Below, one piece after another: positions 214-25,900 of a stretch of DNA of 64,000 bases (within the stretch, counting starts at the first letter, position 1; every line of letters starts with the position of its first letter). Position numbers and translations under genes: made by a program. Source of the DNA: Tubiluchus corallicola (Eukaryota > Animalia > Priapulida); contig JAQGDQ010000929.1 in NCBI GenBank assembly GCA_030141605.1, forward strand, positions 1 through 64,000, given 5' to 3'. The notes under the pieces were generated by a model. That model had not been told where the DNA came from, made no database searches, and saw only the letters and a list, made by a program, of their open reading frames with translations.

Positions 214-356
214 TTAGCTAACTATGTAGCCTTTGAATGTGCTGGCATAACTAGCTGTTGAAATGGAGGCACCAGTGTAGTATGTGACATAAACTTCATC
301 TCCTGTTTCGAGATGAAGAATAGCAGAGTTTGATATCGTTTGCCACTCGCCACCAC
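214..356 (-). CDS. Copy B exon 8: gC1q C-terminal part and stop
   Basis: GGGEWQTISNSAILHLETGDEVYVTYYTGASISTASYASTFKGYIVS*; ttgcag acceptor; TAA at 216-214. Confidence 0.88.
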
Positions 357-3300
357 CTGCAACAAAATAATATTAATTTTAAGTACAACTTGTGTAAGAG
401 CGAATACTAGTCACAAGGATGCATCAGTTTATCTTAATGTCAGGATTATTGTTAACATCACAAACTGAAAATTTATAAAAGTTAGATACCAAACTTGAAA
501 AATAGGAAATACGAAAAAGTTATATGCAGGATGGATTTGAACTAACACCCTTTTGCTTGCAAGGCAAACGCACAGCACCACGTTCCCTGGTGATCATGGT
601 TATCCAGTGTAGCTGACTAACTGAACTAGTACTTCTAAAGTGAAAGCACTCAACCTAGACAGACTGATTTTAAGTAATTTCATCAATTCTGATTCCGAAT
701 CTGAAAATTCCATGTAGTCTTTCTTTCCTGTCCTTGCACTGCTTGTTCTGCGACCTAAGATGTCCATTCCTAAACGATGTGACTTCCTACGACCATTGAC
801 ATTAAAAGCAAAACCGGACTGAATCTTAAACTGTAGGACAAAATAGTTTACTTTTTATAATATTGAAAGAAGGCTTACTATTTTTTCCAAAAATGACTTA
901 CGTGAAAGAATTATTACCACGCAGGTATTTTGTTATATGCTAGATATGTTAGTTTGTGACGAACTTCACACATTCGACAGCTCATGCGTGAGCACAGCAG
1001 TAAATTTAAATTTCGAATTTTTATCTTATAACTTGCCTAGTTTTAGTACAACACACTGAATATCTAACAGCAGCACTGTACTTCAATTTTCGCCTAGATC
1101 CCAGGAAATAAACAAAGCAAATGATATTTGATTGGTAGGTAGGCTGCCGGGTAGCCCAAAGTTCTCCTCTTGCCCAAAAATGGCTAAAATAAATTGGCCC
1201 TGCTAGGGTTAACTTGAAGATGAGAGAGCCAATTACAAATTTGCAAAATTCTCTGCCATCTCCTGCCTGGGGTGACCAATTTGAGAGAAATCAGTAGACA
1301 ATGTTACCGAAGCAATCAGTTTTACCTGCATTAACCTACCTGATATCTCAACCGATGACAACCTCGACGAATCATTTTGAATGTCATTTCTGTTGTGAAA
1401 CTGAAAAACGTACTTACCACCTTAAACGGCATTCCTCCTTTGATTTATCTTGGCAGCAGTTTTTACTGAGTGAAATTACTTCAGCTGTGTAATATCATTT
1501 AAACAACATTAATTTACCATGGCTTTGTCTGTTCTAACGAGCAAGAGTCATTACCTAGTAGCACAAATGATTTCAGTGATACTTCTTCGTAGCTCTAAGT
1601 TGTAAATATTTGTAAAATTTCATGATGCTGCTCACAAGCTTAATTTTCCAGACCTGCTTCTATTTGCAGATCTCGAAAGAGCAAAATTCGCGAAAAAACT
1701 TCATTTTTTCTACAGGTCGGTTTTTGTATTAAAATGATTTCTTGTTTTTTTGCATAATCGCAGTTTTTTAATAATTGTTAATTAGTAAGTTTATAAAGTT
1801 TACATGCCAGCATTTCATCACAGCATTGAGCATTAGCTGAAATAATTGAAATAATTGAAATAATGATAAACCCAGCATGATGATGATGTTTATTGTACAG
1901 GTCCTGTGCTCTGCTCACTGCCTTGTTCTTCTTTAGGCTGTATGGTTATTTTATCGATTAATTGATTTTTTACTTAAACACTTACCTGTTTTTGATTCCT
2001 TGTGTTCAGGGGTTACTGGTATTAGTTTGAGCACCAAACAGGACAAGCCTGATTCCGCCCTTCCTGATATTGTCTCCCAATTTGGGTGCCAATGTGAGGT
2101 AACCCCTCAAGGGTAGATTCCTTTTTTATGTTTTGTGTTTAGCCAGCTAGTTGTTCATTTCGATTACAAAAATTCTTTCTTACATTAACATTTTAATTTC
2201 ACAAAATCACTAAATTATGGGCGGGGCTTATGCCACTGAATCAATGCTAATTAATGTGTCCCAGGCATTTGGTTCACTAATCTCGTTTCAAGATGAGGTA
2301 CTCAAACCATGGCGTCTCGCCCACCGATAGCTCTGGTTCAAACCATCAAGGAGCTATTACAACTACCCTGGTGGCAAGTAGCGACGACAGAACAGTATTT
2401 ATAGCTGTTTTATGTGTTTCAATTTTTGATTAAGTATAACAATACTTCTTTTACAAATTATCATTACCAAACGAATTGAAATGAAGAAAACATAATTATG
2501 TTAATGAATAATTAAACTAGAATTGTAAATAAGGTGAGTGAGCTTTAAACAATCAATAAGTAATTGACAAACGGGATTGACAGTCACCAACTTGTGAATG
2601 AATGAACAAATGAACGAATGAAATTTAATGAATATGACATTATTGTAGAAAATTAGTTTATGTAAAAATTGTTTAGTTAAAACTCTTGAGTAATGAATTT
2701 GTTAGCATGGATGTAGACACGGTGCTTCGTTGCAAATAGTTTACTATACAAGCTTACCTGGATGATAGGGATATGCAACATTATACCCATTATGTAGAAG
2801 CTCGGCAACACCACCGTATGAACTTCTCTGCGCCCATAGATTCAGTTCAAATGAGTAAGTGCCTGATATAGGCGCTGTGAATTTTCCTGTAAAGTAAAAA
2901 AACCAAGTTAATGTTTACGTCTTTATCTAGTGTTTAAATTTAATTAAAAAAGTACCCAAAAGTTAATCCAAAGGTGCACATATGTGATCTTTGTTCTTTT
3001 GTTGTGTAACGTAACGTAAAATTTATTCATACTATGTAGTATGGTACATAAAATCTTAGCGCTAAAGAAAAAATGCATTTAAAAATCAAAATATTGAACT
3101 GCTGTCTATTTGCAACAGAGGCAGGGAGGATGATACTGCAGCCCTAACAGAGTTGCGTTGCAGGTTTATGCTTAAGCTAACAAATGTTTAAGCTGAAACA
3201 AAATTATTGATTCATATAATTGAATTAAATTGAATTATCGATTTATTATTAAGCATATTGCATACACAGCTTACCGAAAAAATGACCCTGTTGGCTCGTT

Positions 3301-6300
3301 TGTTGCAAAGCCTGTGAGTGTAAATAGAGCTGGATAAGAGAACACCACTGACCACTGACAAGGGTCTACAGTACACCTTCCCATTTCATAAGCTCCCTTT
3401 GTGCACGTGATTAGCTGTTTTACTACTAGACAGTCAGACTTTCAATCTGTTCCAGATAAAGGCACATTCACATGCACATCTGAGATGTTTACTGCATTCC
3501 CTTGACTGCATTTACGTTTAACCACATTTAATTTCATTTTTTTAAATTTAATTTTAATTTTTTCATTAGGCTACTCCAGCACTGAGTTCAATGACCGTCC
3601 ACGCCCCCTGAATCCAGACAAAGAAGTTCCCTCTTTGATTGGGAAGAAGTAAGAAGCTCCACCCTCAGAGACTAAAATGCAAAACCGACTGAAAAACTTA
3701 GTCTTAGAGAAAAACAATTATGCGAAACGATTACCGAATTCGAAATTAAAAGTTGAAAATAATCTCATTTCCTTGTTCAATTAAGTTAAAGTCAATCGTC
3801 GTATTTCACATAACAGTTTTTTTATAACGGCGAAACGACTTAGAAAACTACCAACAAAGTATGTCTCAGCTGTTTCTGTAGAGTATGTAAAAATAAATGT
3901 AATAAATGTAATTAGATCATCCATTATCTGTTAAGCAATTCATACGCTCTGCATTACGTAATGGTTCATCAGTATGAATCATTAATAGACAGGCAACTGT
4001 GCATCAACTGCAATGGTAAAGTGTGAACTAGCCTTTAGCCAGTCAATGCAGCTTTAATGCTACGACTACAACGCCTTGGCTAGGTTGCTTCTCTGTTAAA
4101 TACGAATGCTAGTGTTCTTGTCAAATACCTGGGGAATTCCACGATTTTTCGTAACAAATTCAGCATAAAATTTATTCAACATAAGTATTGACTTCTGTGA
4201 TGAAAAATGGTGCAACAGATGGAAAAGGTAGTAAGTATTGTATTTGTAAGGCCATCTTAATTTGTACCGAGAACAAACATTTTTGCAAGACAAATCTGCA
4301 TCATTGATAAAAATCAGCATCTTTGATAACTTCGTTTGTAAAGTTCACATGCAAATGTCACTTAGCGCCCCGTGATCAGTAACAACATTGACAACTTTCA
4401 CTTGTAAAAGAATAATTTTAACACCTTGCTGTGTTTGACTGAACTTAGGATTGGTCAGTGGTCAAAGTCACTCCAATTCACAAGGTTCAAAAAGCCTTGT
4501 TGTGAAGCTAAAAATAGGACCACGAAAGAAAGCAAATTAAGCAAAACAAATAAAATGAATCTGATAACAAATCGTTTTCATACGTTGATATACAGGGATT
4601 GCGATTATCTCCTGTAAATAATTATATGAATTTAAGCATTTCTGTGATTGTAAACTGAAGGGTTGTCTTCCAAAAAAGTTCCTGGAATGTTAATATAGGA
4701 CGTAGCTAGGGGCGGATTATGTCCCTTTGGAGCACCTAGGCTAAATAACTTCTAAATATTTTGCAAATCAAGTTCACGCGTAGGCCTATCTAAAGGCAAC
4801 CATGGTGAAAATTTTTATAACCAGCATTATGACAATAAAACAATAAAAATAAATAAGTTTGTCATATTGATATCATTTCAGTTTATGAAACAATTTAAAA
4901 GCTTTAACATTTGGAAAATTAAAATCGTTGTTTTATAAAAATCCTAAGATTCAAACATGCTGAACTAAGATCAATCATGCTGTTTATATTTGAAACATAG
5001 TAAGTCAATGGACTGGGGTGCCATGATTTACAGTTAGGGTCCCACATGCATGCACGCATCAAAACACACTCACACACACACACATGTGCGCGTGCGTGTG
5101 CACGTGCGCACGCATGCACAAACAGCGTGCGTGCAAGCACGTATGTTCCGTTAATTTACAGCATTCTCAAATCAAAACAATGATGAAGCTCTTAGTAGGC
5201 TGAAGCACGTCTAGAGTGATAATAAAAATAATAAAAATGCTAGAGAAATCTTATCATGCCGAAAATACAAGTAATTGTTTTGTATTCTGTCTGCTTTCAT
5301 TAAGTATAACGTTATTTTACGATTATATGAAAGTAACAATGTTCTAGGGAGGATCAGTGCTCCCACATCTGAGACGCCATTTCCTTGTAACTTTGTTATT
5401 GTTTCAATAAAACCTTTTCTGAGACTGAAAATGGGTAATAATGATAATCAATACAACAGATTATGAGAATTCCACACAGTTAGAGCAAGGAATGTGAGGT
5501 GAGTTTTTCCTGTGGGATTTTCCAATAAATCCTGCTAGGACGTTAATGTTGTGTGGAATGAAATGTCAGCCAGAAAATTTCAATAATGTTGAGATGTTAT
5601 GATGATAGAAGCAAATATTATATTATTTTCTTGTTGGGATGCATTGTTAACTTATAGCAAATCACATACCAGTAGAAGACGAATAAACATTTCCATGATT
5701 GATTTGGCTCTCTGTGAATTTTATAATAACTCCTGTGTTTCCATAGTGGCTTTCTGGGTAATAAACAGAGAAAGCAAAGGCTGAAATGAAAATATTACTT
5801 GTCATCATTATCATCAGGAGATGGTCAATATTATTATGTCATCACAGTCAAAGATGTTTCAACAATTATCATCATCCTTTCCATTCTCCAGGGTAATTTG
5901 GTACCAACAACATGGATTAGCCACAATCTATTCAGTACATCAATCATTGTGAACTCATATCAATACATTCTTAAACACCATTGTGCCATCAATGGTAGCT
6001 CAACATGAAGGACTGAACTTTGTAACCCAGGATGGTTTGCCCCAAAAATGGGACAGGAATAGGAGGAGGCATAAACAAAACTACAAGTAAGAAAGAATTA
6101 AAACTAAATGAAATTGGTCAATGAGGAACAAGATCAGTGAATTATGGTGGATATTGAAATTGTTTTTTTTAATTTACAGCTGACATGTTTGCATTAATGT
6201 TATTCTGCTACGTCTTGCTGTATTTGTTTGTATTTACGGGATCAGGATGAACAAATGGGCTGATAAAGTCCTCTGTTGTTCTACGAACAGTTTCGCACTA

Positions 6301-9300
6301 TCGAGTTGCTCACATCAACCTTCAGCGACTCAAGCCAGTTATTCCGGATATTGCTAGATTTGTTCATAGCATGCATTGAAAGTGAAGCACAAAGGGGAAA
6401 GTAAAACACATTAGCCAACCCAAGTCAGAGGCTTAGAGACCCTTTGCATGATAAGGAAGTAAGACAACAATGTTTGTTGCACTAGAGAGAACTAAAAATG
6501 AATTTACGAAAATGAAAATATAAATTAAAGTAATTAGATTGTAAGCTAAGAAACGGGTTAACACAAAGTTTTGAGTTGTAGTTTTTAGTGGATACTTTCT
6601 GGAAGCATTACTGTGTAATTGTGGTACCCCCACGAGACCTTCAAAACAACAAGGCTAGTGACACTAAAACTCTTATAGATAACAAAGTGATGTGAAAATA
6701 AGAATAATAAAAATTATCTCAAGGAAGAATTACTCATTTGTATATTGATGATTTGTGAAAGATCAGTGCCCTGGCTTCATTTAAAATCGCAGGTAAATAT
6801 TAAAAAATTCTACATATTCAGTGGTGCTAAAAGTATCAGATTCTATAGAGAGAAACGTAAAACTTACTCTTCACAGAAATATCTATTATCTTTGACGTTA
6901 CTGAGCCAAGAGCATTTGTTGCCAAACACTCGTATTCTCCAGTATCCCGGGTTCTTACTTTATATCTTGTAAGTACATCACCTGTGTCAGGTAAAATATT
7001 GCGATCCAGTTTCCAGGTGACGGTTGGTGGTGGATTAGCATCAGCTTCACATTTCAGCTCCAATGTTGATAACATTACAATCTCTGAACTTCCAGTAATA
7101 ATGCTGAGATTTGCAGTGCGTGGTTTGTCTAATAAAAATGTACCATAAAATTTTACTCAGGGTATTAAACACAGAGCTTTACATAAAAACACGTATATAG
7201 AGTCTTATATGAAAAACAGGTACTTCTACTCAAAACGTTTCTTAACTGCACATTAAAAATTCTCTTACGTTTGAAGTGCAAAACCGTTACATTTTATTAT
7301 GCGATACCATAGATTAAAAAGCCATGCATATATAAATACCCATTTTAGAATACTCACCTAATGTCAACATAACAACTCATTTTATTAACTAATGCTTATG
7401 TCAGTAGAGTAAAGTCAGCTACATCAGTAGAGTTATATCAGTAAAGCCCACAGTCTTTGGTAACATAAATTATCCAAGTGCTCACAAATTATTATTTTAA
7501 CCACCCATATCATATGCTTTCCCAGGAATTAAGTAATTAAATCTCTTGTTTGTTGAGGGATTATATCTTTAAAAGTCAACAACCCAGGAAAGTATAACCA
7601 GGAGAATGAAATGGTTGAAACAGGTTTTCAACGAGTCACAGCAAATTCAAAGGTTTTATTTTTAATTTGTAGCTAATGTATAGGCGATTTAGAAAGTACT
7701 TTTATAGTACAAAACTATGTAGTGATAAATAGAGATATTAGTTCTAACATTTATGACTGTAAATCAATACGACGTATAACAAAGAACAATTGTTGTAAAT
7801 AAGTAATTGCACCACAATCTTTATTGCTTTTTCTTCTTTCTTTCTTTTATTCATCTCTACCTAGAAACTGCAGTGAAGATTAACAAGGTACTAATAATAT
7901 GCTTTTCGTGAACTTCAGTCTGATAACTTGAAAAGCTCCCACACTTTAAGAGCAAACAAAAATAAGTAGAATGTTTACAAGTTTGTGACATAGTGCCAAA
8001 GCCACTGTGTCCATTTAAAGGTTCGTGACAAACACATTGCTCTGTACCGAATTTTCCCAATGCTAGATTTTCGCACTGCTAAAAATTTCTAGAAGTAACT
8101 TTTCCCGGTACCAAAATTTCCTCATACCAAACTTACTGTAATGCCAAATTTTTCAATATTTTTCAGTTTGTTTACAGTTGCATGCACTTGCAGCAGGGGA
8201 GTTTGTGAGAATGTTCGTTACTCATCAAGTTTGGCTTGGCTAAACGCTGCTTGCGATCTGTTTGTTAATAAATCAATTGCATTGACAGAAGCCAAGTTTT
8301 GATCAAAAATTGAGTTGTTTTCACGTTTAGAAGTAATGACTGGGTAATTAGCATAATAACAGTTATTTACATACGGTATAACAAAAGTATGTTTCAGTGC
8401 CTTTTCCTAGCGAAAAGTGTCAAAAGAAACAGCGTCTGCGCATGCGAGTGTAAATAACACTGTCGAAGTATCTCTGCAGTACTTTCTATTATCGTAAACC
8501 CAAAATTATATCTGTGCTTATACATATCTCTCCCGCCTAGTTGTTTAAGTCAGCCTAATTGCTCAGTTAACCTGGGTTAGGACTCGCCATCTGTTACGTT
8601 TATTTAATACAGATTAGTTCAGCTGAGTTAGGAACAATTAAATACAACAAACAAATAAAAGGATCTCTATGTTAATGGTATTTTGCATATCTTTATATGT
8701 TAACAAGCTGCTGTCAGTTCTTAATCTAATTCATCACTGCAGGGAAGAACTGCTACTGACTCAATCTTGATGTCTATGGACTGGGGAAAGATCAGATTCT
8801 TCTTGGATAACAAGGCTATAATTCCTGTAATAAATGATGCAGCGACAGCGGTATCACAACCACAGTTTAATGTGATTTGTTCATGCATCCCTTCACAGCA
8901 GAAAGCAGCTAAAATGAGCATGGTGAATGAAACCACCAGCTGGTTTCTAACACTGGTGTTCGTCACCCATCCAGTAACAAACATGCACAAGGCCAAATTT
9001 ATACAAGTCAAATATAAGACATTTTAGAAAAGTTTCTAGATTACTTACAAAGAACATTTAGAGAAATATCCGGAAAAGAAACTTTCAGGGTACGATCTGT
9101 TAGGCAACACCTGATAATCTTGTTATTATCACCCTCCATGCCAGGTGAAAATACATGTCTCAAGGTACTAGTTGAAGTCACAAGTTGTGTTGTACTATTA
9201 GTCCAATTGTCTTGTTCAGCAGAAGAAGTTATGTCTTCTTCACCTAAAAGACACAAAACAGGCAGAATGATAACATTAACGTTGGAAGCGGATCTGGATC

Positions 9301-12300
9301 ATCAGTCAATTTGACTTCTGACAGGGTTAGAAAATTTGGCTAAACGTTTTAAGTCTGACAGGGCTAGAAAATTCAGCTAAACATCATAGGTCTGACAGGG
9401 CTAGAAAATTCAGCTAATTATTCTAAGTCTGACAGGGCTAGAAAATTCAGCTAATTATTCTAATTCTGACAGGGCTAGAAAATTCAGCTAAACATTCTAA
9501 GTCTGACAGGGCTAGGAAATTCAGCTAATTATTCTAATTCTGACAGGGCTAGAAAATTCAGCTAAACATTCTAAGTCTGACAGGGCTAGAAAATTCAGTT
9601 AAACATTCTAAGTCTGACAGGGCTAGAAAATTCAGCTAATTATTCTAATTCTGACAGGGCTAGAAAATTCAGCTAAACATTCTAAGTCTGACAGGGCTAG
9701 AAAATTCAGCTAAACATTCTTAGTCTGACAGGGCTAGAAAATTCAGTTAAACATTCTAAGTCTAACAGGGCTAGAAAATTCAGCTAAACATTCTAAGTCT
9801 AACAGGGCTAGAAAATTCAGCTAAACATTCTAAGTCTGACAGGGCTAGGAAAATTCAGCTAAACATTCTTAGTCTAACAGGGCTAGAAAATTCAGTTAAA
9901 CATTCTAAGTCTGACAGGGCTAGAAAATTCAGTTAAACATTCTTAGTCTGACAGGGCTAGAAAATTCAGTTAAACATCATAGGTCTGACTGGCTAGAAAA
10001 TTCAGCTAAACATTCTAATTCTGACAGGGCTCACAAAGTTAGATAAACATTTTAAGTTTAACAGAAAATTCAATTAAACATTGACAAGTTTTAATATCAT
10101 CGTGTATCATCATGTATCATCGTGTATTGCGCCTCTCGTCTTATGCCTCCCATATGTTATAAATGACAAAAATGCACACACATTTGGCACACTGCTTTGA
10201 GTTTCTTTCTTGACAACCAATATGAAATCTCCCTTACTACTGGTGGTTATTTAAACTATAGTCTTATAAGGTTGTGAATTCCCGTGAAAGCATCACTCCT
10301 TAGACTTCAGCAAAGTAGGATGGTTTCGATGGAAACACGGTAACTAGCTGGCAGTGCTTATGTGTGCACTATAATAACATGCTAAAGATTAAATAGAAAA
10401 TGTCTCTGCAGATAAGAATGTGAATTGATAATTGTTAACTAACTGATGAGACAATGCCTGTTTCACTATGCACTGAACAAGAACTCCATGCACAGTTGCT
10501 GTAGGTCAAAGGTTAAGTGTACCAGAGCAATGCATAATAACTACAGCCATCATGTGACATGTGGGTAAAGTTTCAGTTCTTTTTGCTTTCCCGATCCTAA
10601 ATCTTTTTCAATAACTTTATTTCAATAAAAAAATTCACACACAAGTATTCCCCTGCCATCGCCTAATTTATAATGTAGATTTGTATTAGTTCAGAATTAT
10701 TACTAAGGCCAGCAGTGAAAAAAATTTAGCAATTTTTCAAAATAAATCAGTTTTATACTAGAAGATACTTCCATTCCATTAACTCATTTCAAATAATCTG
10801 TAATGAATTTATCCTGTACAGTATAAACCTGCTACCTACATAAGCTAATGAAAGATATTGGGGAATGTCTGATATATTTCTGGGAGGTTTAGTAATTTTT
10901 GCCTTTTATAAGCAAGCAGAAAAGATTCTGGTTTGTCTAGTTTGTAATAAAACTGGGCCTATAACAGCAAATACAGAAATGTTGAACATAATTCACTTAC
11001 CCAAGTACCACTTAATTTCAGGAGTTGGATTGGCCTCTGCAATGATACACTTGAAAGTTTCCTCTGAATTGTTGGCCCTGACAGTAACCTGATTTGTTAA
11101 TATTTCTTCATCATTTAACAACATCTTTACTTCTTGTGGTTCCACTGTTAAACAAGAAAAACAAAATGATGATATCCTTTTAACAATTGGACGAAAATTA
11201 TAGTGAGTCAAAGTCAATTAGTTAGAAGCATACTAAGGTCCGTTTGTAGTATGATGAGTGGAAATGGGGGATTGAGTAATTGCCAGTTTCAATGGTAAAA
11301 ATTATGATTTTATTTTTAGGTAAAACATCTATGATACTAGAATTGCCAAGCCACAAAAAATCATTACAGAATCAAAAGAGCGAGAATCAAGTTACAAGTT
11401 GAGTAACGCATCAGAGATTGATTCGTTTACAATGAGTGAATTTTTTCTTGCACTAGAATGCTTGCTCCTTGCTGTGGTTATGTTTATTTGCCAATGCAGA
11501 AGAGAACAAAAATCAGTTTTTGTAGACTCTATCTCATAGGTATTTCAAGTTGTATACTAATGACTTAACTTTTGCTCTTTTGACCTTGTAGTGGTTTTTT
11601 GTGTCTTGGTAATTTTAGAGTCATAAATGTACTGACTCTTTGTCTGAAACTTTAGCATGAAAATTGACAAACTTGTTGATTCCTGGTGGTTCACATTCTG
11701 TCACGTATTTAATGTCAATTTCACATGAAAAGGGAAAAATAATTGGGCTCTATGAAAACTGAAATACCCACATTATAATCTCAAAAATTTGCCTAATACT
11801 GTCAAAGTGCTTTATACAATGTTAGAACACTAGCAGTCGTAAAACATATGACTCCTACAAACTAAAACACTTTCGTTTAAAGTATTTTCTTTACACCAAA
11901 AGGTTAGCTTATATTTTCTCTATACATTTGTGCTTTTTCTGTTTTTCTTATAAGTACAGCAACATTTGAGCAAACACATTTTTCTCATAATTATATTCCT
12001 CTTCTTTATTACAGTTTAAATTTGTTGCTACACAAGGAAGAATTGTCAGAAATGGTACAACGGCAATTCTTTGTCATACTATTACATTGATTTCTCGTTG
12101 TTCCTAGCAGAGATATATTTATTACTGTGTTCACTTTTACCATTAAATACGTCTATTCGTTTATAATTACTTTTATATCTTTTATCAGTTGTATAAACTG
12201 AAGCAAATTCTAACTAAACTACACTAGGTCATGTCCTTACTAGTAATTTAGATTACTGTTAAACTTTATAGAATGCTGCTGCCTCTCTCTGTTACTTTCA

Positions 12301-14360
12301 CGCTGAAGTACCCTGGCTTCCAGTGAAATTCATAACTCAGTAATATATTTTAGTTTTTACTTTTTAGGCACTAAATGAAATGTCACTAGATATGGTTACT
12401 GACTATAAGCCAACTCGTTTTCTCAGCGGATCTGGTACCCACTCACATGTAGTGCCAAGACGCACAACCAAAATTGGATTAACAGCATCATCCTACAAAC
12501 TGCAACGAATGTGAAATTCGTTGCCAATTCACATTTGATCTGAAACGTCTTTTACTTATTTCAGATATCATATTATTCTACAAATTTTTCGGCATCAATT
12601 TTGACATTTTCACTTTTACTTGTAACAGTTTGCCAATTTCAAGTTTCTTAGCTATAATATTTTACATGAATCTGTCACGTTTTATTAATAATTGCCAATT
12701 TTTGTTCATTGTGCAACATAAAGTTGTAGCAGGCTTTACATATTAAGAAGGTTAAAAACTTATTACAGCAGTTCCATATTTCTGTGCAATTAAGTTACAG
12801 CCACATCATTGAATACATTTCATAAAATATGTTTATATGTATTATTGACTTACCTATTACAGTCAATTTTGCTTCATATGAATCTTCCAGAATGTCAGGA
12901 TATTTGAAAAATTGACACACGTAGATTCCATCGTCTTCTGGCACTCCCACGGCATCAATTTTAATACTATGCAGGCCATTTATTACTGGATTCTCATACA
13001 TGTAAGATATTCGACCAGAGATATTAAGAAATTTCCCGTCTTTAAGCCATGTCACGTTATAGCTAAGAACAGGGACGAATGCCATATTAATTCTACATTC
13101 AAGTTCTGCTGTTGCACCTTGTAAAACTCCCAGGCTGGATGGCTGCATGTCAAAATATTCGCATCTGGCATCTGTAACTATAAATAGCAACAACACATGT
13201 TTTTGGCCGACTTTTTGTGAACTAGCGTATCATTTCTATTAAGTAAAAACAACAAAGACAAAAGCTTGATCCCTGATGTGTACCTACACTAGCTAGAACA
13301 GCCAACAATAGTACAAATATTCAGTGTTCAAAGCGACAGCCATCAAATAATTGTCACCCAAACTAAAAATTTTGGGTAACACAATTTTATCTTAGAACAC
13401 CAAACACCTTCCATAAATTGAGATACGATATGACAGCTAGTGTTGGGTTTTAAACTTGAGTATTCCAGCTATTAAAAAAATCTGTTTAAGGTGTTTTAAG
13501 CAAATAAAAATGTCAAAACTTGGTGGTAGATACGCCTTTCATAAAATTAGGAAAAACTATGGCAATCCAATGGTTAGTCAGAAATAGTTATTATTTAGGC
13601 ACACAACATAATAAAAAGCCTTTATATCTCTATAAGTAAACAATTTAAAATCTCGAATAATAATTTATCTGATTCTTTGCCAGTAAATGTCGGCGTTAAA
13701 CAGGGATGTGTATAGGGTCCAGTTTTGTTTAATTTGTTATTAAATGACATCACAAAGGTGCGACCCACCCATATTAAATCTCAATTACTTGCAGTTACTA
13801 TTGTGCGCCGACAAAATTGTTGTCTTAACTACTTCTCAGGAAGGCTTACAGATGGGTTAAATCAGTACCGTGACGACAAGTTGCTAAATAATTACATTGT
13901 ACAAAAGTATTTGTTTTCAACAAAGGAGCTTACAGATTATCAAAGTAAAACTTTACTTAGGCCATTATTTGATTACATGTTTGAATGACGTATCCATGAA
14001 ACATATATGCAAGAATCATATGACCAGTCTTTTTCACAAACACATCACTTTTCATTTCTCAAAAAACCATATGTGTTGATCTGAACATTACTTTTAAAAA
14101 CTATCGTACTTTAAAAGAAAACTGAGAAGTATTTAAATACCCCTATTTATTACGTATGTAAAAAGCAAGTATTACATATAATCCTTAAACAGCTAGAGTC
14201 AGCAACAGCTCTACTGTTATTCCATGCAATATCTTAATCTACAAATTCTAATGAGATTAATTATAAAATAAAAATTAGTTTTTCAAAGAAGATAACAGAA
14301 TATTCCCTTACCATTTACTGCAAATATCAGTAGAATGGCTACTTTCGCAGTGAGTGACAT
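214..14360 (-). CDS. Secreted Ig(V)-Ig(C2)-Ig(I)-gC1q protein, copy B (8 coding exons, ~451 aa)
   Basis: Exons 14360-14312, 13177(or 13171)-12854, 11144-11001, 9243-9049, 7128-6868, 5780-5670, 2886-2758 and 356-214. All introns are GT..AG and phase 1, all internal exons are multiples of 3, and the frame is open from ATG (MSLTAKVAILLIFAVN) to TAA. Ig Cys/Trp/DxGxYxC motifs and C1q motifs (FAFSV, TGKFTAP..GTYSF, L.LETGDEVYV, STFKGY) are present. Confidence 0.88.
525..590 (-). mobile_element. Degenerate tRNA-like (SINE head) relic; paralog at ~20088-20153
   Basis: The minus strand has an anticodon-arm-like tttgccttgcaagcaaa and a B-box-like gttcaaatcc, but no intact cloverleaf. Confidence 0.3.
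2758..2886 (-). CDS. Copy B exon 7: gC1q middle part
   Basis: GKFTAPISGTYSFELNLWAQRSSYGGVAELLHNGYNVAYPYHP; tttacag / gtaagc; 129 nt. Confidence 0.88.
5040..5142. repeat. Alternating purine-pyrimidine (CA/GT/GC) tract; shorter paralog at ~23830-23900
   Basis: cacacacacatgtgcgcgtgcgtgtgcacgtgcgcacgcatgcaca. Confidence 0.7.
5670..5780 (-). CDS. Copy B exon 6: gC1q N-terminal part
   Basis: TFAFSVYYPESHYGNTGVIIKFTESQINHGNVYSSST; catttcag / gtatgt; 111 nt; not in the ORF track. Confidence 0.87.
6868..7128 (-). CDS. Copy B exon 5: I-set Ig domain
   Basis: YKP...LKCEADANPPPTVTWK...DTGEYECLATNALGS; ttattag / gtaagt; 261 nt. Confidence 0.92.
9049..9243 (-). CDS. Copy B exon 4: C-half of C2 Ig domain
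   Basis: GEEDIT...TSTSTLRH...DNNKIIRCC...SLNVL; ttttag / gtaagt; 195 nt. Confidence 0.88.
9317..10035. repeat. 37-bp minisatellite (~19 copies) in intron 3 of copy B
   Basis: Unit tctgacagggctagaaaattcagctaaacattctaag; period 37 (9317, 9354...). Confidence 0.95.
11001..11144 (-). CDS. Copy B exon 3: N-half of CD80-like C2 Ig domain
   Basis: VEPQEVKM...FKCIIAEANPTPEIKWYLG; ttaacag / gtaagt; 144 nt. Confidence 0.88.
11331..11623. mobile_element. MITE/foldback-like element with long imperfect inverted arms
   Basis: atgatactagaattgccaagccacaaaaaatcattacagaatcaaaagagc (11331-) is the imperfect reverse complement of gctcttttgaccttgtagtggttttttgtgtcttggtaattttagagtcat (-11623). Confidence 0.65.
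12854..13177 (-). CDS. Copy B exon 2: V-set Ig domain
   Basis: GATAELEC...VTWLKDG...HSIKI..V..EDDGIYVC...AKLTV; acceptor tttatag (or the in-frame ttacag), donor gtaagt. Confidence 0.9.
14312..14360 (-). CDS. Copy B exon 1: signal peptide MSLTAKVAILLIFAVN
   Basis: ATG at 14360, hydrophobic core, G|gtaagg phase-1 donor. An upstream acceptor (tattttcag) implies a 5' UTR intron. Confidence 0.75.
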
Positions 14361-15500: not shown

Positions 15501-17330
15501 GCATCTTGTTTCAAGTATGTGGGGGATATGTTGACATCTTTGACATAACTATCATTTTTTCAGTCGGGAATGTTAGCTTCTGGAAAATCTGCGTTAAAAA
15601 TATGCCAACGTACTGAAACAGCAAGTTAGTTTTGTGTAGCATTGGAGGGCACTAATAATGTTTGTTCTGCCCCTGGTCAGTGGTCAGAGAATAAATGAGA
15701 TTGTCCAGCATATAAGAATCATTGATTAGTTTGCTAAGCTGCTCAATTAGTTACTTTTCAAAGGTTTCATCTTTTTTCTATCCACAGGAAAACTGCAAAT
15801 GACCAAAACTTTGTTTACTACTTTCCAATTGTCAGCTATTTAGTATCAAATTCTGACTAGTACACCATCTTGTATCAGTTTCTCCACATGATAGTTGTAC
15901 AGAGGCCATTTTCAGCGTCCTTTGCACAGAGGCGTGGCAGAGGTAGGGGGCAGGGGGCAATCATCCCTGGAAGCTAAATTTTCAGGCAGCTTTTAAACTG
16001 CAAGAATAAAATGCATGACAGTTAAATACGTTCTAGGCGTTCATTGTAGGGTAAAATAATCGTTTTATCATAAAATTATTGTGAGTTACAGAAACGTAAT
16101 AAATGAGTATTTCAAATTCACGTTAATGTAACAGCCTCGTGTCTTCAAACATTCTCAACTCTTGGCTACGTCTCATGATTTTCTTTGTTTATTGTACAAC
16201 TTGCATCTTACTGCAGACAAGATCAAGCTAAATAATCATGTTATGCTTCAGTAGTTGTTCCATGTTGAATTTTAACAGTTTAACATACAAATAGCAAGGC
16301 GTTAGGTTGTTGCTGTGAAAGTTTCGTCTGATGGACTCGCACAATCATACAGTGTAAAAACAAGTGAACTGCCAATGTGGCAAACTCGAAGATTTCTTTA
16401 ATTTGATATGTTATCGATTTCTTTTTTAGTAATATAACACATGTTTAGCAATGCTAACACAATTCTTTGCTATGAGAGCTCAAATGGCAGTAATCTTGAT
16501 TGATCTTAATTCATACTGATGTGTGCATTTCATATGTAAATTTGTTTTGCTTGTTGGTACCTTACATCTGTACAAATATCACAGTTTTTATGTAACCTTA
16601 ACTATCAGTCTCATTCGTTATGTCATCTGCATTTCAGCATAATGGAAAATTAACACACTAAAGGTATATAAGTGTATTTTTCATTTTCAAAATTTAATTT
16701 CAAAATTTTCAAAGACCACATATTTGAATTCGCTGAATGCAATCAGCATGTTTTTGTTGCATTTTCACTTTCATTCATAAAACTGATTTAAGGATTTTAT
16801 ATGCAATTTTAAGTTTAAAACTGAACTGGGGGGATGTATAATTCGAAGACTGATGCAGCTGACGGTGCCTCGATTAGTTTTAAGATTTTGTCAATTGCAT
16901 TACTATTATTGGTTTTCTAAGACGTGCGAGGGTGCTTGGCAGTACTCCTTTCATTTTTTTGTATAATATAATCATATAGATAAATTCTGATTAAAAGGAT
17001 TGCAGTTGCAATTGCAAATCATTCAAGGTGATTTGAGTAAAAATGATTTCGCGCATCAATCACAATTTTTCAGGATTATATTTTCACATTGTTTAAAGTT
17101 AATTTTCATATAAATTTTATTTTAGTTTAAAGAGTAACAAATAAATCACAAATAAGATCAAAATAAGCTGTGAGACTTTCTTAAATTTTTACTCTCAAAG
17201 AAATTAACAAAATTAAAAGTGGTCGCTTTTGCTTATTCCATTTTTAGTAAAAAAACAACAACAAAAAATGATGCTACACTGTAGCAGCTACAGGTATGGT
17301 TGAGCAAATTTTGTAGCTCCTCTTCATCTG

Positions 17331-19530
17331 AGCATCAACCCACAGGTCCTTCCTGTGGCCTCCAGTTACTTGTTTCATTTGATTCGTCCAGCATCAACCC
17401 ACAGGTCCTTCCTGTGGCCTCCAGTTACTTGTTTCATTTGATTCGTCCAGCATCAACCCACAGGTCCTTCCTGTGGCCTCCAGTTACTTGTTTCATTTGA
17501 TTCGTCCAGCATCAACCCACAGGTCCTTCCTGTGGCCTCCAGTTACTTGTTTCATTTGATTCGTTCAGCATCAACACACAGGTCCTTCCTGTGGCCTCCA
17601 GTTACTTGTTTCATTTGATTCGTCCAGCATCAACCCACAGGTCCTTCCTGTGGCCTCCAGTTACTTGTTTCATTTGATTCGTCCAGCATCAACCCACAGG
17701 TCTTTCCTGTGGCCTCCAGTTACTTGTTTCATTTGATTCGTTCAGCATCAACACACAGGTCCATCCTGTGGCCTCCAGTTACTTGTTTCATTTGATTCGT
17801 CCAGCATCAACCCACAGGTCCTTCCTGTGGCCTCCAGTTACTTGTTTCATTTGATTCGTCCAGCATCAACACACAGGTCCTTCCTGTGGCCTCCAGTTAC
17901 TTGTTTCATTTGATTCGTCCAGCATCAACACACAGGTCCTTCCTGTGGCCTCCAGTTACTTGTTTCATTTGATTCGTCCAGCATCAACCCACAGGTCCTT
18001 CCTGTGGCCTCCAGTTACTTGTTTCATTTGATTCGTTCAGCATCAACACACAGGTCCTTCCTGTGGCCTCCAGTTACTTGTTTCATTTGATTCGTCCAGC
18101 ATCAACCCACAGGTCCTTCCTGTGGCCTCCAGTTACTTGTTTCATTTGATTCGTCCAGCATCAACCCACAGGTCCTTCCTGTGGCCTCCAGTTACTTGTT
18201 TCATTTGATTCGTCCAGCATCAACCCACAGGTCCTTCCTGTGGCCTCCAGTTACTTGTTTCATTTGATTCGTCCAGCATCAACCCACAGGTCCTTCCTGT
18301 GGCCTCCAGTTACTTGTTTCATTTGATTCGTTCAGCATCAACCCACAGGTCCTTCCTGTGGCCTCCAGTTACTTGTTTCATTTGATTCGTTCAGCATCAA
18401 CACACAGGTCCTTCCTGTGGCCTCCAGTTACTTGTTTCATTTGATTCGTCCAGCATCAACCCACAGGTCCTTCCTGTGGCCTCCAGTTACTTGTTTCATT
18501 TGATTCGTCCAGCATCAACACACAGGTCCTTCCTGTGGCCTCCAGCTACTTGTTTCATTTGATTCGTTCAGCATCAACCCACAGGTCCTTCCTGTGGCCT
18601 CCAGTTACTTGTTTCATTTGATTCGTCCAGCATCAACCCACAGGTCCATCCTGTGGCCTCCAGTTACTTGTTTCATTTGATTCGTTCAGCATCAACACAC
18701 AGGTCCATCCTGTGGCCTCCAGTTACTTGTTTCATTTGATTCGTCCAGCATCAACCCACAGGTCCTTCCTGTGGCCTCCAGCTACTTGTTTCATTTGATT
18801 CGTCCAGCATCAACCCACAGGTCCTTCCTGTGGCCTCCAGTTACTTGTTTCATTTGATTCGTCCAGCATCAACCCACAGGTCCTTCCTGTGGCCTCCAGT
18901 TACTTGTTTCATTTGATTCGTCGAGCATCAACCCACAGGTCCTTCCTGTGGCCTCCAGTTACTTGTTTCATTTGATTCGTCCAGCATCAACACACAGGTC
19001 CTTCCTGTGGCCTCCAGTTACTTGTTTCATTTGATTCGTCGAGCATCAACCCACAGGTCCTTCCTGTGGCCTCCAGTTACTTGTTTCATTTGATTCGTCC
19101 AGCATCAACACACAGGTCCTTCCTGTGGCCTCCAGTTACTTGTTTCATTTGATTCGTCCAGCATCAACACACAGGTCCTTCCTGTGGCCTCCAGTTACTT
19201 GTTTCATTTGATTCGTTCAGCATCAACACACAGGTCTTTCCTGTGGCCTCCAGTTACTTGTTTCATTTGATTCGTCCAGCATCAACCCACAGGTCTTAAC
19301 TGTGGCCTCCAGTTACTTGTTTCATTTGATTCGTTCAGCATCAACCCACAGGTCCTTCCTGTGGCCTCCAGTTACTTGTTTCATTTGATTCGTTCAGCAT
19401 CAACCCACAGGTCCTTCCTGTGGCCTCCAGTTACTTGTTTCATTTGATTCGTCTCAGCATCAACCCACAGGTCCTTCCTGTGGCCTCCAGTTACTTGTTT
19501 CATTTGATTCGTCCAGCATCAACACACAGG
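17331..19530. repeat. 59-bp satellite array (~37 copies) between the two Ig-C1q paralogs
   Basis: Unit agcatcaacccacaggtccttcctgtggcctccagttacttgtttcatttgattcgtcc; internal hairpin ccacagg-tcctt-cctgtgg. Confidence 0.97.
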
Positions 19531-19581
19531 TACACATATTATACAATCCACGTATTATTTAGGAAAACTACAAACAAAGTA

Positions 19582-19587: not shown

Positions 19588-19768
19588 CCCATGAACATTT
19601 TATGAACATATCTAAAAATTAGCATAAATAATTAGCATAGAATTTTCGGCACATGCTACGTCAAAAGGTGATTTTCGGTGCCTGTGGCCCTTCTGACCCA
19701 AACCATCACAATGTACGTTGTTGTTGGCTAAATGTTGTTTGTGATTAAGTCCAAGTTGGTAAAAAACC

Positions 19769-19917
19769 CTAGCCAATCATATATCCATTGAAATTGCTGG
19801 AAGAAGTTCTGTAAATGGTGGCAACGTCATCGTCATTATAATATGTGACATAAACTTCGTCACCCATTTCTAGACGAAGAATAACAGAGTTTGATATCGT
19901 ATGCGTGCAATCATCAC
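19769..19917 (-). CDS. Copy A exon 8: gC1q C-terminal part and stop
   Basis: GDDCTHTISNSVILRLEMGDEVYVTYYNDDDVATIYRTSSSNFNGYMIG*; TAG at 19771-19769. Confidence 0.88.
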
Positions 19918-22900
19918 CTGCAATAAAATAATATTATTTTTAAGCACAACTGTTGAACAGAGAGTGAGTAATATTCACATGAATACACCAGTTAATTTTA
20001 ATGTTAGGATTATTCATTACTTTGCAAACCCAAAATTTATAAAATTTAGATACCAAACTTGAAAAATAGGAAATACGAAAAAGTTATATGCAGCATGGAT
20101 TTGAACTAGCACCCTTTTGCTTGCAAGGCAAACGCTCAGCACCACATTCCCTGGTGATCATGGTTATCTAGTATAGCTGACTAACTGAACTAGTACTTCT
20201 AAAGTTAAAGCACTCAACCTAGACAGACTGATTTTAAGTAATTTGATTATTTTTTGTTTAATTTGATCAATTCTAATTCCGAATCTGAAAATTCCACATA
20301 GTCTTCACCTCCTGACCTTACACTGCTTGTACTGTGACCTAAGATGTCCATTCCTAAATGATATGACTTCCTACGACCATCGACACTAAAAGCAAAACCG
20401 GACTGAATCTTAAACTGTAGGTCAAAATAATTTACTTTTTAGAATATTGAAAGAAGGCTTACTATTTTTTCCAAAAATGACTTACGTGAAAGAATTATTA
20501 CCACACAGGTATTTTGTTATATGCTAGATATGTTAGTTTGTGACGAACTTCATACATTCGACAGCTCATGCGTGAGAATTTTTATCATATAACTTGCCTA
20601 GTTTTAGTAAAACACACTGAATATCTAACAGCAGCACTGTACTTCAATTTTCGCCTGGATCCCAGGAAATAAACAAAGCAAATGATATTTGATTGGTAGG
20701 TAGGCTGCCAGGTAGCCCAAAGTTCTCCTCTTGCCCAAAAATGGCTAAAATAAATTGGCCCTGCTAGAGTTAGCTCGAAGATGAGGGAGCCAATTACAAA
20801 TTTGCGGAAGTCTCTGCCATCTCCTGTCTGGGCTGACCAATTTGAGAGAAATCAGTAGACAATGTTACCTGAGCAATCAGTTTTACCTGCATTCACCTAC
20901 CTGATATCACAACCGATGACAACCTCGACGAATCACTTTTAATGTCATTTCTGTTGTGAAACTGAAAAACGTACTTACCACCTTAAACAGCATTCCTCCT
21001 TCGATTCCTGTTGGCAGCAGTTTTTACTCAGTGAAATTACTTCAGCTGTGTAATGTCATTTAAAGAACATTAATTTACTATGGCTTTGTCTGTTCTAACG
21101 AGCAAGAGTCACTACCTAATAGCACGAATGATTTCAGTGATACTTCTTCATAGCTCTATGTTGTAAATATTTGTAAAATTTCATGATGATGCTCACAAGC
21201 TTGATTTTCCAGACCTGCTTCAATTTGCAGATCTCGAGTGAAGATCTTGAGTAAAGACACAAAATTCGCGGAAACAAAACTTCGTTTTCTACAGCTTGTT
21301 TTTGTACTGAGATGATTTGTTGTTTGTTTTTGCACTTTTTTAATAATTGCTAATTGGTAAATTTATAATGTGTACATGCCAGCATTTCATCACAGCATTG
21401 AGCATTAGCTTAGTGGTGTACCGACTTCTGTATTGCTAATTATCTTTTTTAAGTTTTGATAAATGAAGTAATTTGCATTTAATCGTTGAAATGATGATAA
21501 ACACAGTATGATGATGATGTTTATTGTACAGGTTCCGGGCTCTGCTCACTCCCTTGTTCTTCTTTAGGCTGTATGGTTATTTTATCGAGTAATTGATTCT
21601 TTTACCTTATCTGTGGCTGTAACCTTTTGTTGCTCAGGTAATAAACAGATTAACATTTTATGTTTCAGCTTTTCACTTCGGCTACCAGCAGTCAACTTAC
21701 CGACCTCTGCCCGCTTTTCAAATGTAAATTTTGGCCTTGGCTTCTTATTTCAGTAAACTTTCTACTTATAATTTAGCTTACACCTGTAGAATGTACCTGC
21801 TATTTTATTGCATTAGAAATTCTGAGTATAAAATTTTTCAGAAACATAACGAGAAGTTTCAGTGACTTGTGGCAGACATTTTATCCTCTGCTGAACGATA
21901 GTCTTACACAGTTGGAATTGAAACTTGCATGCTGGCAAACATTCCACTGAAGTCTTGCCAGTTAGTTGTACCACTGGAATCGTTAGCTGTTGCCTAAGGC
22001 TGAACAATTAAGCCTACAGATGGGACTGGTTGCAGCCCGTATTTTTCTGTATTAACTTAAAATGCTCTTGCTCCACAAATAAATAAATAAATCTCTCTTT
22101 ACAGCACTTTAGGTTCGCAAAATCGTAATTAAGGGTGCACCAATAAAACCTGCCAATAAAGTAAAACTTAAACGAATCAATATTTCATCTAAAGTCAACC
22201 GACTAAAAGAAAATCTTTAACTCTACTAAATAATTTTGTAGCCTCGTGCACAGACTAATGATATTTAAAATTATGCAACAAAAACTGTTATCTTCCTTTT
22301 GCGCTGCATTTGAAAATCTTGTTGTCACGTTGCAGAAGGCATGATTCAACTTTCCTTTATTGTGTTAACTCCATTCAAAGTGGGAGCTTTGATTTTAAAG
22401 GGAGGGGGGCGGAGCTTTTGCCCTATTATGTGTTTAAACTTTCATTCACTAAAGGACACAGAACATGTTACGTGAATGTTATTTTAAAGACTCTTCAAAA
22501 TAAAAACATCTATAAATCGAAATTCAATCATCTTACCTGAACAAAATTCACAAATCCTACCTTGTGATTGGCTGAAATTTAAATACTCACCTATTTCACC
22601 TGTGCAAAATCTATAAAAACAAGTGCCGCATTCTTATTCCTTGAGTTCAGGGGTTACTGGTACTAGTTTGAGTGCCAAACAGGACAAGCCTGATCCCTTC
22701 ATGATCCTGTCTCCTAACTGCTTGGGTGCTGCCAATATGAAGTAACCCCTCAAGGGTAGATTCTTTTTTATGTTTTGTGTTTAGCCAGCTAGTTGTTCAT
22801 TCCAATTACAAAAATTCTTTCTTACATTAACATTTTAATTTTACAAAATCACTAAATTAGTCAAGATTATGGGCTTATGCCACTCATTCAATGCTAATTA

Positions 22901-25900
22901 ATGTCTCCCAGGCATTTGGTTCACTGATCTCGTTTCAGGATGAGGTACTCAAACCATGGCGTCTTGCCCACCGATAGCTCTGGTTCAAACCATCCAGGAG
23001 CTATTAAAACTACCCTGGTGGCAAGTATCGACAACAGAACAGTATTTATAGCTATTTTATGTGATTCACTTATGCATTTTTGATTAAGAATATCAGTACT
23101 TCTTTTACAAATTATTATTACCAGACGAATTAAAATGAAGAAAACATAATTATATGACATTATTGTTGAAAATTAGTTTAAGTAAAAAATTGTTTAGTTA
23201 AAGCTCTTAAGTAATGAATGTGTTAGCATGGATGTAGAGGCGGTGCCTCATTGCAAATAGTTTACTGAACAAGCTTACCTGGATGACGGAGATATGTAAC
23301 AAGATTGCCATCATGCCTAAGACGGGCAACATCATCTGACGAGCTACTTTTCGCCCGTAAATTCAGTTCAAATGAGTAAGTACCTATAACAGGTGCAGTA
23401 AATTTTCCTGTGAAGCAAAAAACCAAATTAATGTTTATGTCTTTATCTAACGTTTCTAAATTTAATAAAAAGCATCCAAAAGTTAATCCAAAAGTTAGTC
23501 CAAAGGTGCACACATGTGATCTTTGTTTTTTTATTGTGTAACGTAATGTAAAATTTATTCATACTACGTACTATGGTACATAAAATTTTAGCGCTGAAGA
23601 AAAAAATGCATTTAGAAATCAAAATATTGAACTGCTGTCAATATCATTTCTGTTGATATCATTTCTGTTTGTGATACAATTTAAAAGCTTTAACATTTGG
23701 AAAATTAAAATTGTTGTTTTATAAAAATTCTAAGATTCAAACATGCTGAACTAAGATCAATCATGCTGTCTATATTTAAAACATAGTAAGTCAATGGACT
23801 GGGGTTCCATGATTTACAGTTAGGGCTCCCCATGCATGCACGCATCAAAACACACACATACACACACACACACACACACAGTGTGCGGGCGTGTAAGCAT
23901 GTATGTTCTGTTAATTTACAGCATTCTCAAATCAAAACCCTATTGAAGCTCTTAGTAGGCTGAAACTCGTCTAGAACGATAATAAAAATTAAAAAAATGC
24001 TAGAGAAATCTTATCATGCCAAAAATACAAGCAGTTGTTTTGTATTCTGTCTGCTTTCATTAAGTATAACGTTATTTTACAATTATATGAAAGTAACAAT
24101 GTTCTAGGGAGGATCAGTGCACCCACATCTGAGACGCTGTTTCCTTGTAACTTTGTTATTGTTCCAATAAAACCTTTTTTGAGACAGAAAATAGGGAGTA
24201 ATGATAATAAATACAACAGATTATCAGAATTCCACACAGTTATAGCAGGGAATGTGAGGTGAGTTTTTCCTGTGGGGTTTTCCAATAAATCCTGCTAGGA
24301 CGTTAATGTTGCGTGGAATGAAATGTCAGCCAGACAATTTCAATAATGTTTAGATGTTATGATGATAGAAGCAAATATTGTATTATTTTCTTGTTGGGAC
24401 GCATTGTTAACTTATAGCAAATCACATACCCGTGGACGACGAATATACGTTTCCATGATTTACGTTTGTCTTGGTAAATTTTATAATTTCTCCTGTGCTT
24501 CCAGTCTCGTTTTGTGGCGTCGTAACAGAGAAAGCAAAAGCTGAAATGAAAATATTACTTGTCATCATTATCATCACGAGCTGGTCAATATTATTATGTA
24601 ATCACAGTCAAAGATGTTTCCACAATTATCACCATCCTTTCCATAATCCAGGTTTTTCTACGAACAGTTTCACTCTGTCGAGTTGCTCACATCAACCCTC
24701 AGTGACTCATGCCTGCAATTCCGGATATTGCTAGATTTGTTCATAACATGCATTGAAAGTGAAGCACAAAGGGGAAAGTAAAACATATTAGCCAACCCAA
24801 TTCAGAGACTTAGAGACCCTTTGCATGATAAGGAAGTAAGACAGCAAAAGCTTGTTGCACTAGAGAGAATTAAAAATGGATTTGCGAAAATGAAAACATA
24901 AATTATAGTAATCAGATTGTAAGCTAAGAAAAGGGTTAACACAAACTTTTGAGTTGTAGTTTTTTAGTGGATACTTTCTGAAGCATTACTGAATAATCGA
25001 GGTACCCCCACGAGACCTTCAAAACAACAAGACTAGTGACACTAAAACTCTTATAGATAACAAACTGATGTGAAAATAAGAATAATAAAAATTATCTCAA
25101 GGAAGAATTACTCATTTGGATATTGATGATTTGTGAAAGATCAGTGCACTGGCTTCATTTAAAATCAAAGGTAAATATTAAAAAATTCTACATATTCAGT
25201 GATGATAAAAGTATCAGATTCTATATAGAGAAACATAAAACTTACTCTTCACTTCTACATCTGTTATGCTTGACGTGACTGAGCCAAGAGCGTTTGTTGC
25301 CACACACTGGTATTCTCCATCATCCCGAGACTTTACAATGGATCTTTTAAGAACATCACCTGTGTCAGGTAAAATATTGCGATCCAGTTTCCAGGTGAAG
25401 GTTGGTGGTGGATTAGCATCAGCTTCACATTTCAGCTCCAATGTTGATAACATTACAATCTCTGAACTTCCAGTAATAATGCTCAGATTTGCAGTGCGTG
25501 GTTTGTCTAATAAAAATGTACCATAAAATTTTACTCAGGATATTAAACACAGAGCTTTACATAAAAACACGTATATAGAGTCTTATATGAAAAACAGGTA
25601 CTTCTACTCAAACGTTTTTTAACTGCACATTAAAAACTCTCCTACGTTTGAAGTGCAAAACCAATACATTTTATTATGCGATACCATATATTAAAAAGCC
25701 ATGCATATATAAATACCCATTTCAGAATACTCACCTAATGTCAACATAACAACTCATTTTATTAACTAATGTTTGTCAGTAGAGTAAAGTCAGCTACATC
25801 AGTAGAGTTATATCAGTAAAGTCTACAGTCTTTGCTAACTTCATTTATCCAAGTGCTCACAAATTATTATTTTAACCACCCATATCATAAGCTTAGCCAG

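Follow-up and report, generated by a model that had tools for sequence, protein, structure and literature searches.

Two tandem immunoglobulin-C1q genes of Tubiluchus corallicola with C1q exons more diverged than their introns: a probable case of gene conversion opposed by selection

How can the exons of two tandem gene copies come to differ far more than the introns that separate them? This question is raised by a stretch of 64,000 nucleotides of AT-rich animal DNA from the priapulid Tubiluchus corallicola (GenBank assembly GCA_030141605.1, contig JAQGDQ010000929.1, positions 1 to 64,000 of the forward strand; hereafter the window). It carries two tandem genes on the minus strand, a lower copy with eight coding exons (214-14360) and an upper copy with seven exons (19769-31223) and a likely first exon (33563-33623), and both encode proteins with three immunoglobulin (Ig) domains followed by a C-terminal C1q head. 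An initial annotation of this DNA had attributed the divergence of the C1q exons to diversifying selection on the binding head. We consider it probable that the two genes descend from an old duplication, that repeated gene conversion has since overwritten introns 3-7 and the middle Ig exons, and that selection for two different predicted binding surfaces has kept the C1q exons apart.

The inner borders of all 15 exons follow the GT-AG rule, every intron is in phase 1, and splicing by coordinates yields open frames of 449 residues for the lower copy and 433 for the upper copy (without exon 1). Pfam places Ig domains in exons 2 and 5 and the C1q head in exons 6-8, with matches to Ig families in exon 2 for both copies and in exon 5 for the lower copy, while the middle Ig domain, encoded by exons 3-4, was recognized by alignment to the C2-set-like domain of a full-length relative, P0018. 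Exon 8 scores above the Pfam C1q cut-off in both copies, and that of the lower copy can be aligned to the solved C1q heads of C1QL3, cerebellin-1 and adiponectin chains. Exons 6 and 7 gave weak matches to positions 1-36 and 38-76 of the C1q profile (two of the four exons scanned), and searches of the PDB with exon 7 and upper exon 6 returned chance hits only. No further gene copies were found within the window. The features of the two genes are as follows.

14312-14360, minus strand: lower exon 1, coding part, with the start codon and a likely signal peptide (ATG, hydrophobic core with a best 8-residue Kyte-Doolittle mean of 3.4, GT donor)
12854-13171, minus strand: lower exon 2, encoding Ig domain 1 and strongly diverged from its upper counterpart (silent divergence 0.9-1.6; Pfam I-set, E 1.2e-7)
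11001-11144, minus strand: lower exon 3, first half of Ig domain 2 (62% identity to the C2-set-like domain of P0018)
9049-9243, minus strand: lower exon 4, second half of Ig domain 2 (splice borders and P0018 alignment)
6868-7128, minus strand: lower exon 5, Ig domain 3 (Pfam Ig_3, E 3.4e-11)
6975-7235, no strand: near-identical tract over the intron 4/exon 5 border, a likely recent conversion tract (3 differences in 260 columns)
5670-5780, minus strand: lower exon 6, start of the C1q head with the first variable loop (27% DNA divergence; the upper equivalent weakly matches Pfam C1q positions 1-36)
2758-2886, minus strand: lower exon 7, middle of the C1q head with the second variable loop (Pfam C1q positions 38-76, E 0.087; 26% divergence)
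214-356, minus strand: lower exon 8, which completes the C1q head and contains variable loops three and four as well as the stop codon (Pfam C1q, E 1.8e-6, above cut-off)
357-6867, no strand: lower introns 5-7, without the exons in between, differing from the upper copy at 310 of 3917 alignable columns (92-93.5% identity by intron)
33563-33623, minus strand: likely upper exon 1, predicted from DNA (47-base match at 79%, E 7.6e-4, same donor)
30909-31223, minus strand: upper exon 2, Ig domain 1 (Pfam I-set, E 1.2e-9)
29955-30098, minus strand: upper exon 3 (splice borders, alignment to the lower copy)
27524-27718, minus strand: upper exon 4 (splice borders, alignment to the lower copy)
25246-25506, minus strand: upper exon 5, Ig domain 3 (splice borders, alignment to the lower copy)
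24430-24540, minus strand: upper exon 6, C1q head, with an N-glycosylation sequon in the first loop (Pfam C1q positions 1-36, weak)
23279-23407, minus strand: upper exon 7, C1q head (splice borders, alignment to the lower copy)
19769-19917, minus strand: upper exon 8, C1q head, with acidic loops, one extra Cys and the stop codon (Pfam C1q, E 1.1e-5)

The head exons are about four times as diverged between the copies as the introns between them, and their silent sites exceed the introns about fivefold. Identical amino acids make up 25/37, 27/43 and 24/47 positions in exons 6, 7 and 8, and 39/48, 55/65 and 74/87 in exons 3, 4 and 5; on recount these figures agree exactly with those annotated initially, where exon 8 had been given as "about half". 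At the DNA level, exons 6, 7 and 8 show identities of 0.73, 0.74 and 0.70 (26-30% divergence), as compared to 46/704, 79/999 and 185/2214 substituted columns in introns 5, 6 and 7 (6.5-8.4% divergence, counting substitutions only over all alignable columns of introns that also contain large indels). The annotated contrast between exons and introns therefore holds, but the introns are 92-93.5% identical rather than about 95%, and identities of 95-99% are reached only locally, for instance in the 100 columns next to exons 5 and 6. Introns 3-4 differ at 269/2097 columns, intron 2 cannot be aligned between the copies, and the similarity stops about 30 bases past the stop codon. Intron columns 7-30 bases from the six relevant exon edges are at the background level (11/143 differ), and a clear shoulder is seen solely in the intron before exon 8 (22/90 columns at 31-120 bases).

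Two further diverged segments had been overlooked. Exon 2 retains only 65/103 identical residues, with a silent divergence (dS) of 0.9-1.6, and its divergence at the protein level is no different from that of the head (38/103 vs 51/127 differences, p 0.68). Exon 5 switches within the exon, with 2 differences in its first 51 codons and 24 in its last 36.

The excess in the head is not limited to replacement sites. Fourfold-degenerate sites of the head differ at 15/43 positions, as compared to 310/3917 intron columns (p 7e-7), and in core codons that specify the same amino acid in both copies 21 of about 54.5 synonymous sites differ, as compared to a fraction of 0.079 in introns (p 3e-10). The fourfold sites of exons 3-5 serve as an internal control and are equal to their own introns (9/82 vs 269/2097, p 0.74). 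Decay or hypermutation of CpG as the source of the raised dS was ruled out by counts of transversions alone (10/43 fourfold head sites vs 135/3917 intron columns, p 2e-6) and of sites outside CpG (10/34 vs 265/3752, p 1e-4). Multi-base changes were ruled out as well, as codons with unchanged neighbours still differ at 11/39 (p 2e-4). Because their silent sites are also strongly diverged, the head exons are, as judged from the alignment, older than the introns that separate them, and not simply fast at replacement sites.

Over the 127 aligned codons of the head, the replacement divergence (dN) amounts to 0.29, and dS was estimated at 0.50-0.56 by counting and at 0.73 by likelihood, with intron divergence of 0.07-0.09. 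The resulting dN/dS of 0.39-0.60 is significantly below 1 (likelihood ratio test, LRT, p 4e-4). Splitting the head by likelihood gives 0.93 for four variable loops, not different from 1 (p 0.82), and 0.22 for the core, the latter value indicating long purifying selection on both heads. By counting, the loops reach 1.1-1.3, again not different from 1, and the proportion of changed replacement sites exceeds that of silent sites in 81% of bootstraps only. A dN/dS significantly above 1 was found neither in the head nor in the loops, in a comparison of two sequences that has little power.

Replacements in the head are concentrated in these four loops, affecting 29/41 loop codons and 22/86 core codons (p 2e-6, a value flattered by loop limits drawn after viewing the alignment), and the claim that changes cluster between the conserved strands is thereby borne out. 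So is the annotated difference in loop chemistry between an aromatic-rich copy B (here the lower copy) and a charged copy A (the upper one): aromatic residues occupy 7/41 loop positions in the lower copy and 1/43 in the upper (p 0.03), and acidic residues 2/41 and 9/43, respectively (p 0.05). The upper head also has an unpaired Cys in the third loop and an N-glycosylation sequon in the first, both absent from the lower head. From the gC1q topology, with support from the Pfam positions and the alignment of exon 8 to C1QL3 and cerebellin-1, we take the four loops to lie together at the top of the trimer; an AlphaFold model of P0018 (10-row alignment) reached a mean predicted local distance difference test score (pLDDT) of 38. 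In C1ql1, the top calcium ions sit in the loop that joins strands 5 and 6, and receptor contact is made by the loop that joins strands 7 and 8 (PMC12749725); we infer that these are equivalent to the third and fourth loops here. On these sequence features, it is likely that the two heads bind different ligands.

Which part of the genes requires a special explanation is indicated by the comparison with P0018, to which the lower copy is identical at 61/126 residues in the head, 48/102 in exon 2 and 107/197 in exons 3-5. The head thus evolves not much faster than the Ig domains, so it is the 84% similarity of exons 3-5 between the copies that needs to be explained. With P0018 as the outgroup, neither copy is faster (12 vs 8 sites, p 0.50). 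According to the history that we propose, an old duplication would have been followed by homogenization of the stretch from exon 3 to the stop codon, sparing only the head exons and the final 36 codons of exon 5; the age of the duplication is suggested by exon 2, which is as diverged as the head, and by the neighbouring intron, which can no longer be aligned. Conversion tracts that covered a selected loop residue would have been removed by selection, so that the adjacent silent sites would keep their old age, and with exons about 27% different, the mismatch itself probably helps to stop the tracts. The products may be secreted pattern-recognition lectins of the QREP type, with aromatic loops in the lower copy and acidic loops in the upper copy at the top of the trimer, which would, by a further step, serve different ligands.

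Several observations point to conversion. Intron divergence is overdispersed (0/5000 permutations reach the observed value), and a tract across the border of intron 4 and exon 5 differs at 3/260 columns (p 3e-6 at a background of 7.5%, in a window chosen post hoc). Divergence at neutral sites decays with distance from the nearest replacement over about 24-35 bases, and the addition of an exon term to the distance model brings no gain (p 0.37). The observed profile (0.34 at fourfold sites, and 0.09, 0.08 and 0.07 in introns by distance) was approached by a toy simulation in which certain sites were protected and tracts averaged close to 30 bases; it gave 0.31-0.34 and, in introns, 0.09-0.10, 0.06-0.07 and 0.06-0.07; without protected sites no divergence peak was formed. 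This simulation, with six replicates per setting, a rate set by hand and protected sites taken from the data, speaks to sufficiency only.

A number of points weigh against this explanation. The overdispersion of the introns may partly reflect misalignment at indels, and a Sawyer-type run test on the introns alone was not significant (longest run p 0.84, squared runs p 0.27). The divergence peaks are very sharp, reaching the background level 7-30 bases beyond the exon edges, and the simulation requires mean tracts of about 15-60 bases, as tracts of at least 150 bases give wide shoulders of 0.25-0.46 unseen in the data. At matched distance from a replacement, 8/30 silent exon sites differ, as compared to 11/111 intron sites (p 0.03), which hints at exchange limited to exons. 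Relaxed constraint would account for a loop dN/dS of 0.93 just as well as selection would, and the four variable loops also differ in P0018. The start codon of the lower copy is lost in the likely exon 1 of the upper copy, which is perhaps no longer secreted or functional. Finally, the case for conversion rests on two genomic copies from one assembly.

The strongest of the competing explanations, although unlikely in our view, assumes a fairly recent duplication of the 3' halves, about 8% diverged, and lets the C1q exons of one copy come from more distant members of the family, by conversion that would end where homology does, at the exon edges. It keeps some probability since the simulation is limited to sufficiency and the run tests are non-significant, and it would account directly for the fall to background at the exon edges and for the excess of exon differences at matched distance. 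Public DNA runs also speak for it. Four of six such runs (three from one sample, which may be the source of this DNA, and one from a second study) were compared with positions 150-7300, with variants representing 40 of 1019 rows and contig depth not equal to copy number. At 19/20 of the variant places checked, the letter of the upper copy was found; six of the checked places are in exon 6, and there the run from the second study has the upper letter at 6/6, so the upper type of exon 6 is not an error of assembly. At a single position in an intron, as many as 15 contigs of one run share a letter that the window does not have, and there are positions at which no contig of a given run agrees with the window. 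This suggests that more than two gene copies exist. However, separate imports into exons 6, 7 and 8 and the end of exon 5 would be needed, all of similar age and matching exon 2, the switch in exon 5 does not fall at an exon edge, the exon term adds nothing to the distance model, and the two copies are equally far from P0018.

It is quite improbable that the paralogs are old and converted but that no ligand selection was involved, the relaxed loops having drifted until the mismatch alone blocked conversion. The neutral-like loop dN/dS agrees with this, the upper copy may be losing function, and clustered differences have been reported to be capable of suppressing conversion (PMC3728101). On the other hand, such an escape should begin in the faster-changing, indel-rich introns, yet the peaks are formed by all three head exons and not by the introns between them, the difference in loop chemistry is directed, and both heads have, to judge from their core, long been under purifying selection.

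The initially annotated selection on the head, understood as rapid positive selection after a recent duplication, is very improbable. It would explain the clustering of replacements in the loops, and with dS set to the intron value dN/dS would rise to about 2 for core codons and about 10 for loop codons; however, dS fixed at the intron value of 0.085 is rejected (LRT 70, p 6e-17), and multi-base changes offer no way out. In the head exons dN/dS is below 1 and dS is raised as well, at 0.50-0.73, an outcome that the initial annotation had itself named as refuting; rapid adaptation following a recent duplication can therefore not, by itself, have produced the contrast. What stands of the proposed diversifying selection is the clustering in loops, the loop chemistry and the divergence island itself, if it is read as the product of selection that keeps copies different, as has been done for such islands of old divergence inside homogenized DNA (PMC3924837).

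An artefact of assembly, with two haplotypes of one locus placed in tandem and old balanced alleles in the exons, has hardly any probability, despite the 2.2 kb tandem array between the copies: no alignment between the copies is possible before exon 2 or past the stop codon, unlike in a haplotig duplication, and the read data suggest a multi-copy family. Ancient balanced alleles, such as those of the major histocompatibility complex, also give deep exon and shallow intron divergence, which counts in favour of this explanation.

Old paralogs under conversion and selection, which we prefer, have a known parallel in the primate red/green opsins, where the functional exon is a divergence peak amid low-divergence introns under gene conversion, as described by the model of Teshima and Innan (PMC3924837). 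Both cases comprise tandem paralogs with similar introns and a functional exon as the peak (PMC3924837). Here, however, the peaks comprise exons 6, 7 and 8 as well as part of exon 5, dS reaches 0.5-0.7 and the 5' end has wholly escaped conversion; besides, the functional contrast is a predicted one, based on loop chemistry on paper. The oyster C1qDC clusters likewise contain tandem C1q paralogs with purifying selection on the core and few variable sites thought to alter the ligand range (PMC6835236). In those clusters an intron is more diverged than the exons, the reverse of the contrast found here, positive selection was detected by site models on at least 15 genes, and the term "gene conversion" is absent from the main text of the paper (PMC6835236). 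In the copepod genes GOT1p1 and GOT1p2, another invertebrate case, islands of coding divergence lie amid converted DNA and occasional transfer yields chimeric proteins; these are, however, intronless enzyme genes studied in population samples, as opposed to an intron-rich recognition protein in one assembly (PMC3728101). A literature search for gene conversion in C1qDC or QREP genes found no such study among the results listed, which is not proof of absence. By analogy, we regard the divergence island in these Ig-C1q genes as a new example of the known opsin-type pattern.

In architecture, as predicted from the sequence, both genes are QREP-like. QREPs are C1q-related proteins with N-terminal Ig and C-terminal C1q domains, which have been reviewed as occurring solely in gastropods, with several Ig domains and family expansion in Caenogastropoda (PMC10672478, PMC8878817). 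The order of Ig and then C1q domains is shared with both copies (PMC10672478, PMC8878817, PMC6835236), which differ in having three Ig domains and no helical neck of the P0018 type; the likeness is one of architecture. P0018 itself has a signal and three Ig domains, and its helical neck, about 60 residues long, separates the third of these from C1q. A neck exon was sought in intron 5 of both copies (5781-6867; 24541-25245) by comparison with P0018 and gave no match; unlike P0018, both predicted proteins are without the usual trimer-forming stalk. The lower copy has a plausible signal peptide, judged by hydropathy alone. In the likely first exon of the upper copy the corresponding ATG reads ACG and one base is gone, and an in-frame upstream ATG leads to a weak signal peptide; as the other seven exons are intact, this copy may be losing secretion or using another first exon.

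P0018 came from a HMMER search with upper exon 2; of six inspected for domains among the 150 listed of 281 hits, it alone combined Ig and C1q. Searches with exon 5 against longer proteins (0/54 candidates) and with the exon 7 frame yielded no candidate, and P0018 as a query gave four hits among 7994 scored candidates, namely itself, two Ig proteins and one C1q protein, so there are too few relatives for site models. No named QREP sequence was returned by the homolog searches, with queries including exon 5, the exon 7 frame, upper exon 2 and P0018. The nearest Atlas cluster of P0018 is a C1q/Ig protein whose commonest phylum is Mollusca (score 0.94, 213/256 features; a weak assignment, with 4/10 best hits sharing the family).

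The introns of the two copies contain other elements. Large copy-specific segments are located at 3109-4867 and 5892-6275 in the lower copy and at 21605-22636 in the upper; both lower-copy segments would be shared by other family members, because public contigs cover them with variant letters. Intron 3 of both copies contains a minisatellite with a unit of about 37 bases and different copy numbers (9316-10082; 27785-28176). A high-copy interspersed element lies at the same place of intron 7 in both copies (about 800-1105, with the match near 20420-20650) and is nearly identical between them; its contig depth is hundreds of times that of the rest, it has no clear terminal inverted repeat, and its age could date the last homogenization. 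Between the genes, a tandem array at 17330-19531 comprises about 37 copies of a 59-base unit at 97% identity. Elsewhere in the window, an intron-free stop-to-stop frame of 607 codons (60168-61988, minus strand) encodes a homolog of procollagen galactosyltransferase (COLGALT), with matches to Pfam Glyco_transf_25 and, in the PDB, to procollagen galactosyltransferase 1 (E 1e-146). A frame of 228 codons (36934-37617, minus strand) has no Pfam hit and presumably resembles a gag-like fragment of a retrotransposon.

If the paralogs are as old as we propose, intron identity badly understates their age, and as a neutral yardstick it would inflate the dN/dS of the loops to a spurious value of about 10. 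The locus would represent a clean opsin-type island in an invertebrate receptor of immune type, which, without a dN/dS above 1, marks the exons that selection likely keeps different. The binding sites of bivalve C1qDC proteins are hardly known (PMC6835236), and the two heads form a ready pair for a test of ligands in this class. As a speculation, to which we give little probability, the homogenized introns could also act as hinges of germline shuffling, in which crossovers and conversions exchange whole loop-bearing head exons between old and strongly diverged head types of a multi-copy family and, through new combinations of loops, build a combinatorial receptor repertoire; if exons are indeed shuffled in this manner, this would be a germline route to the diversification of innate receptors.

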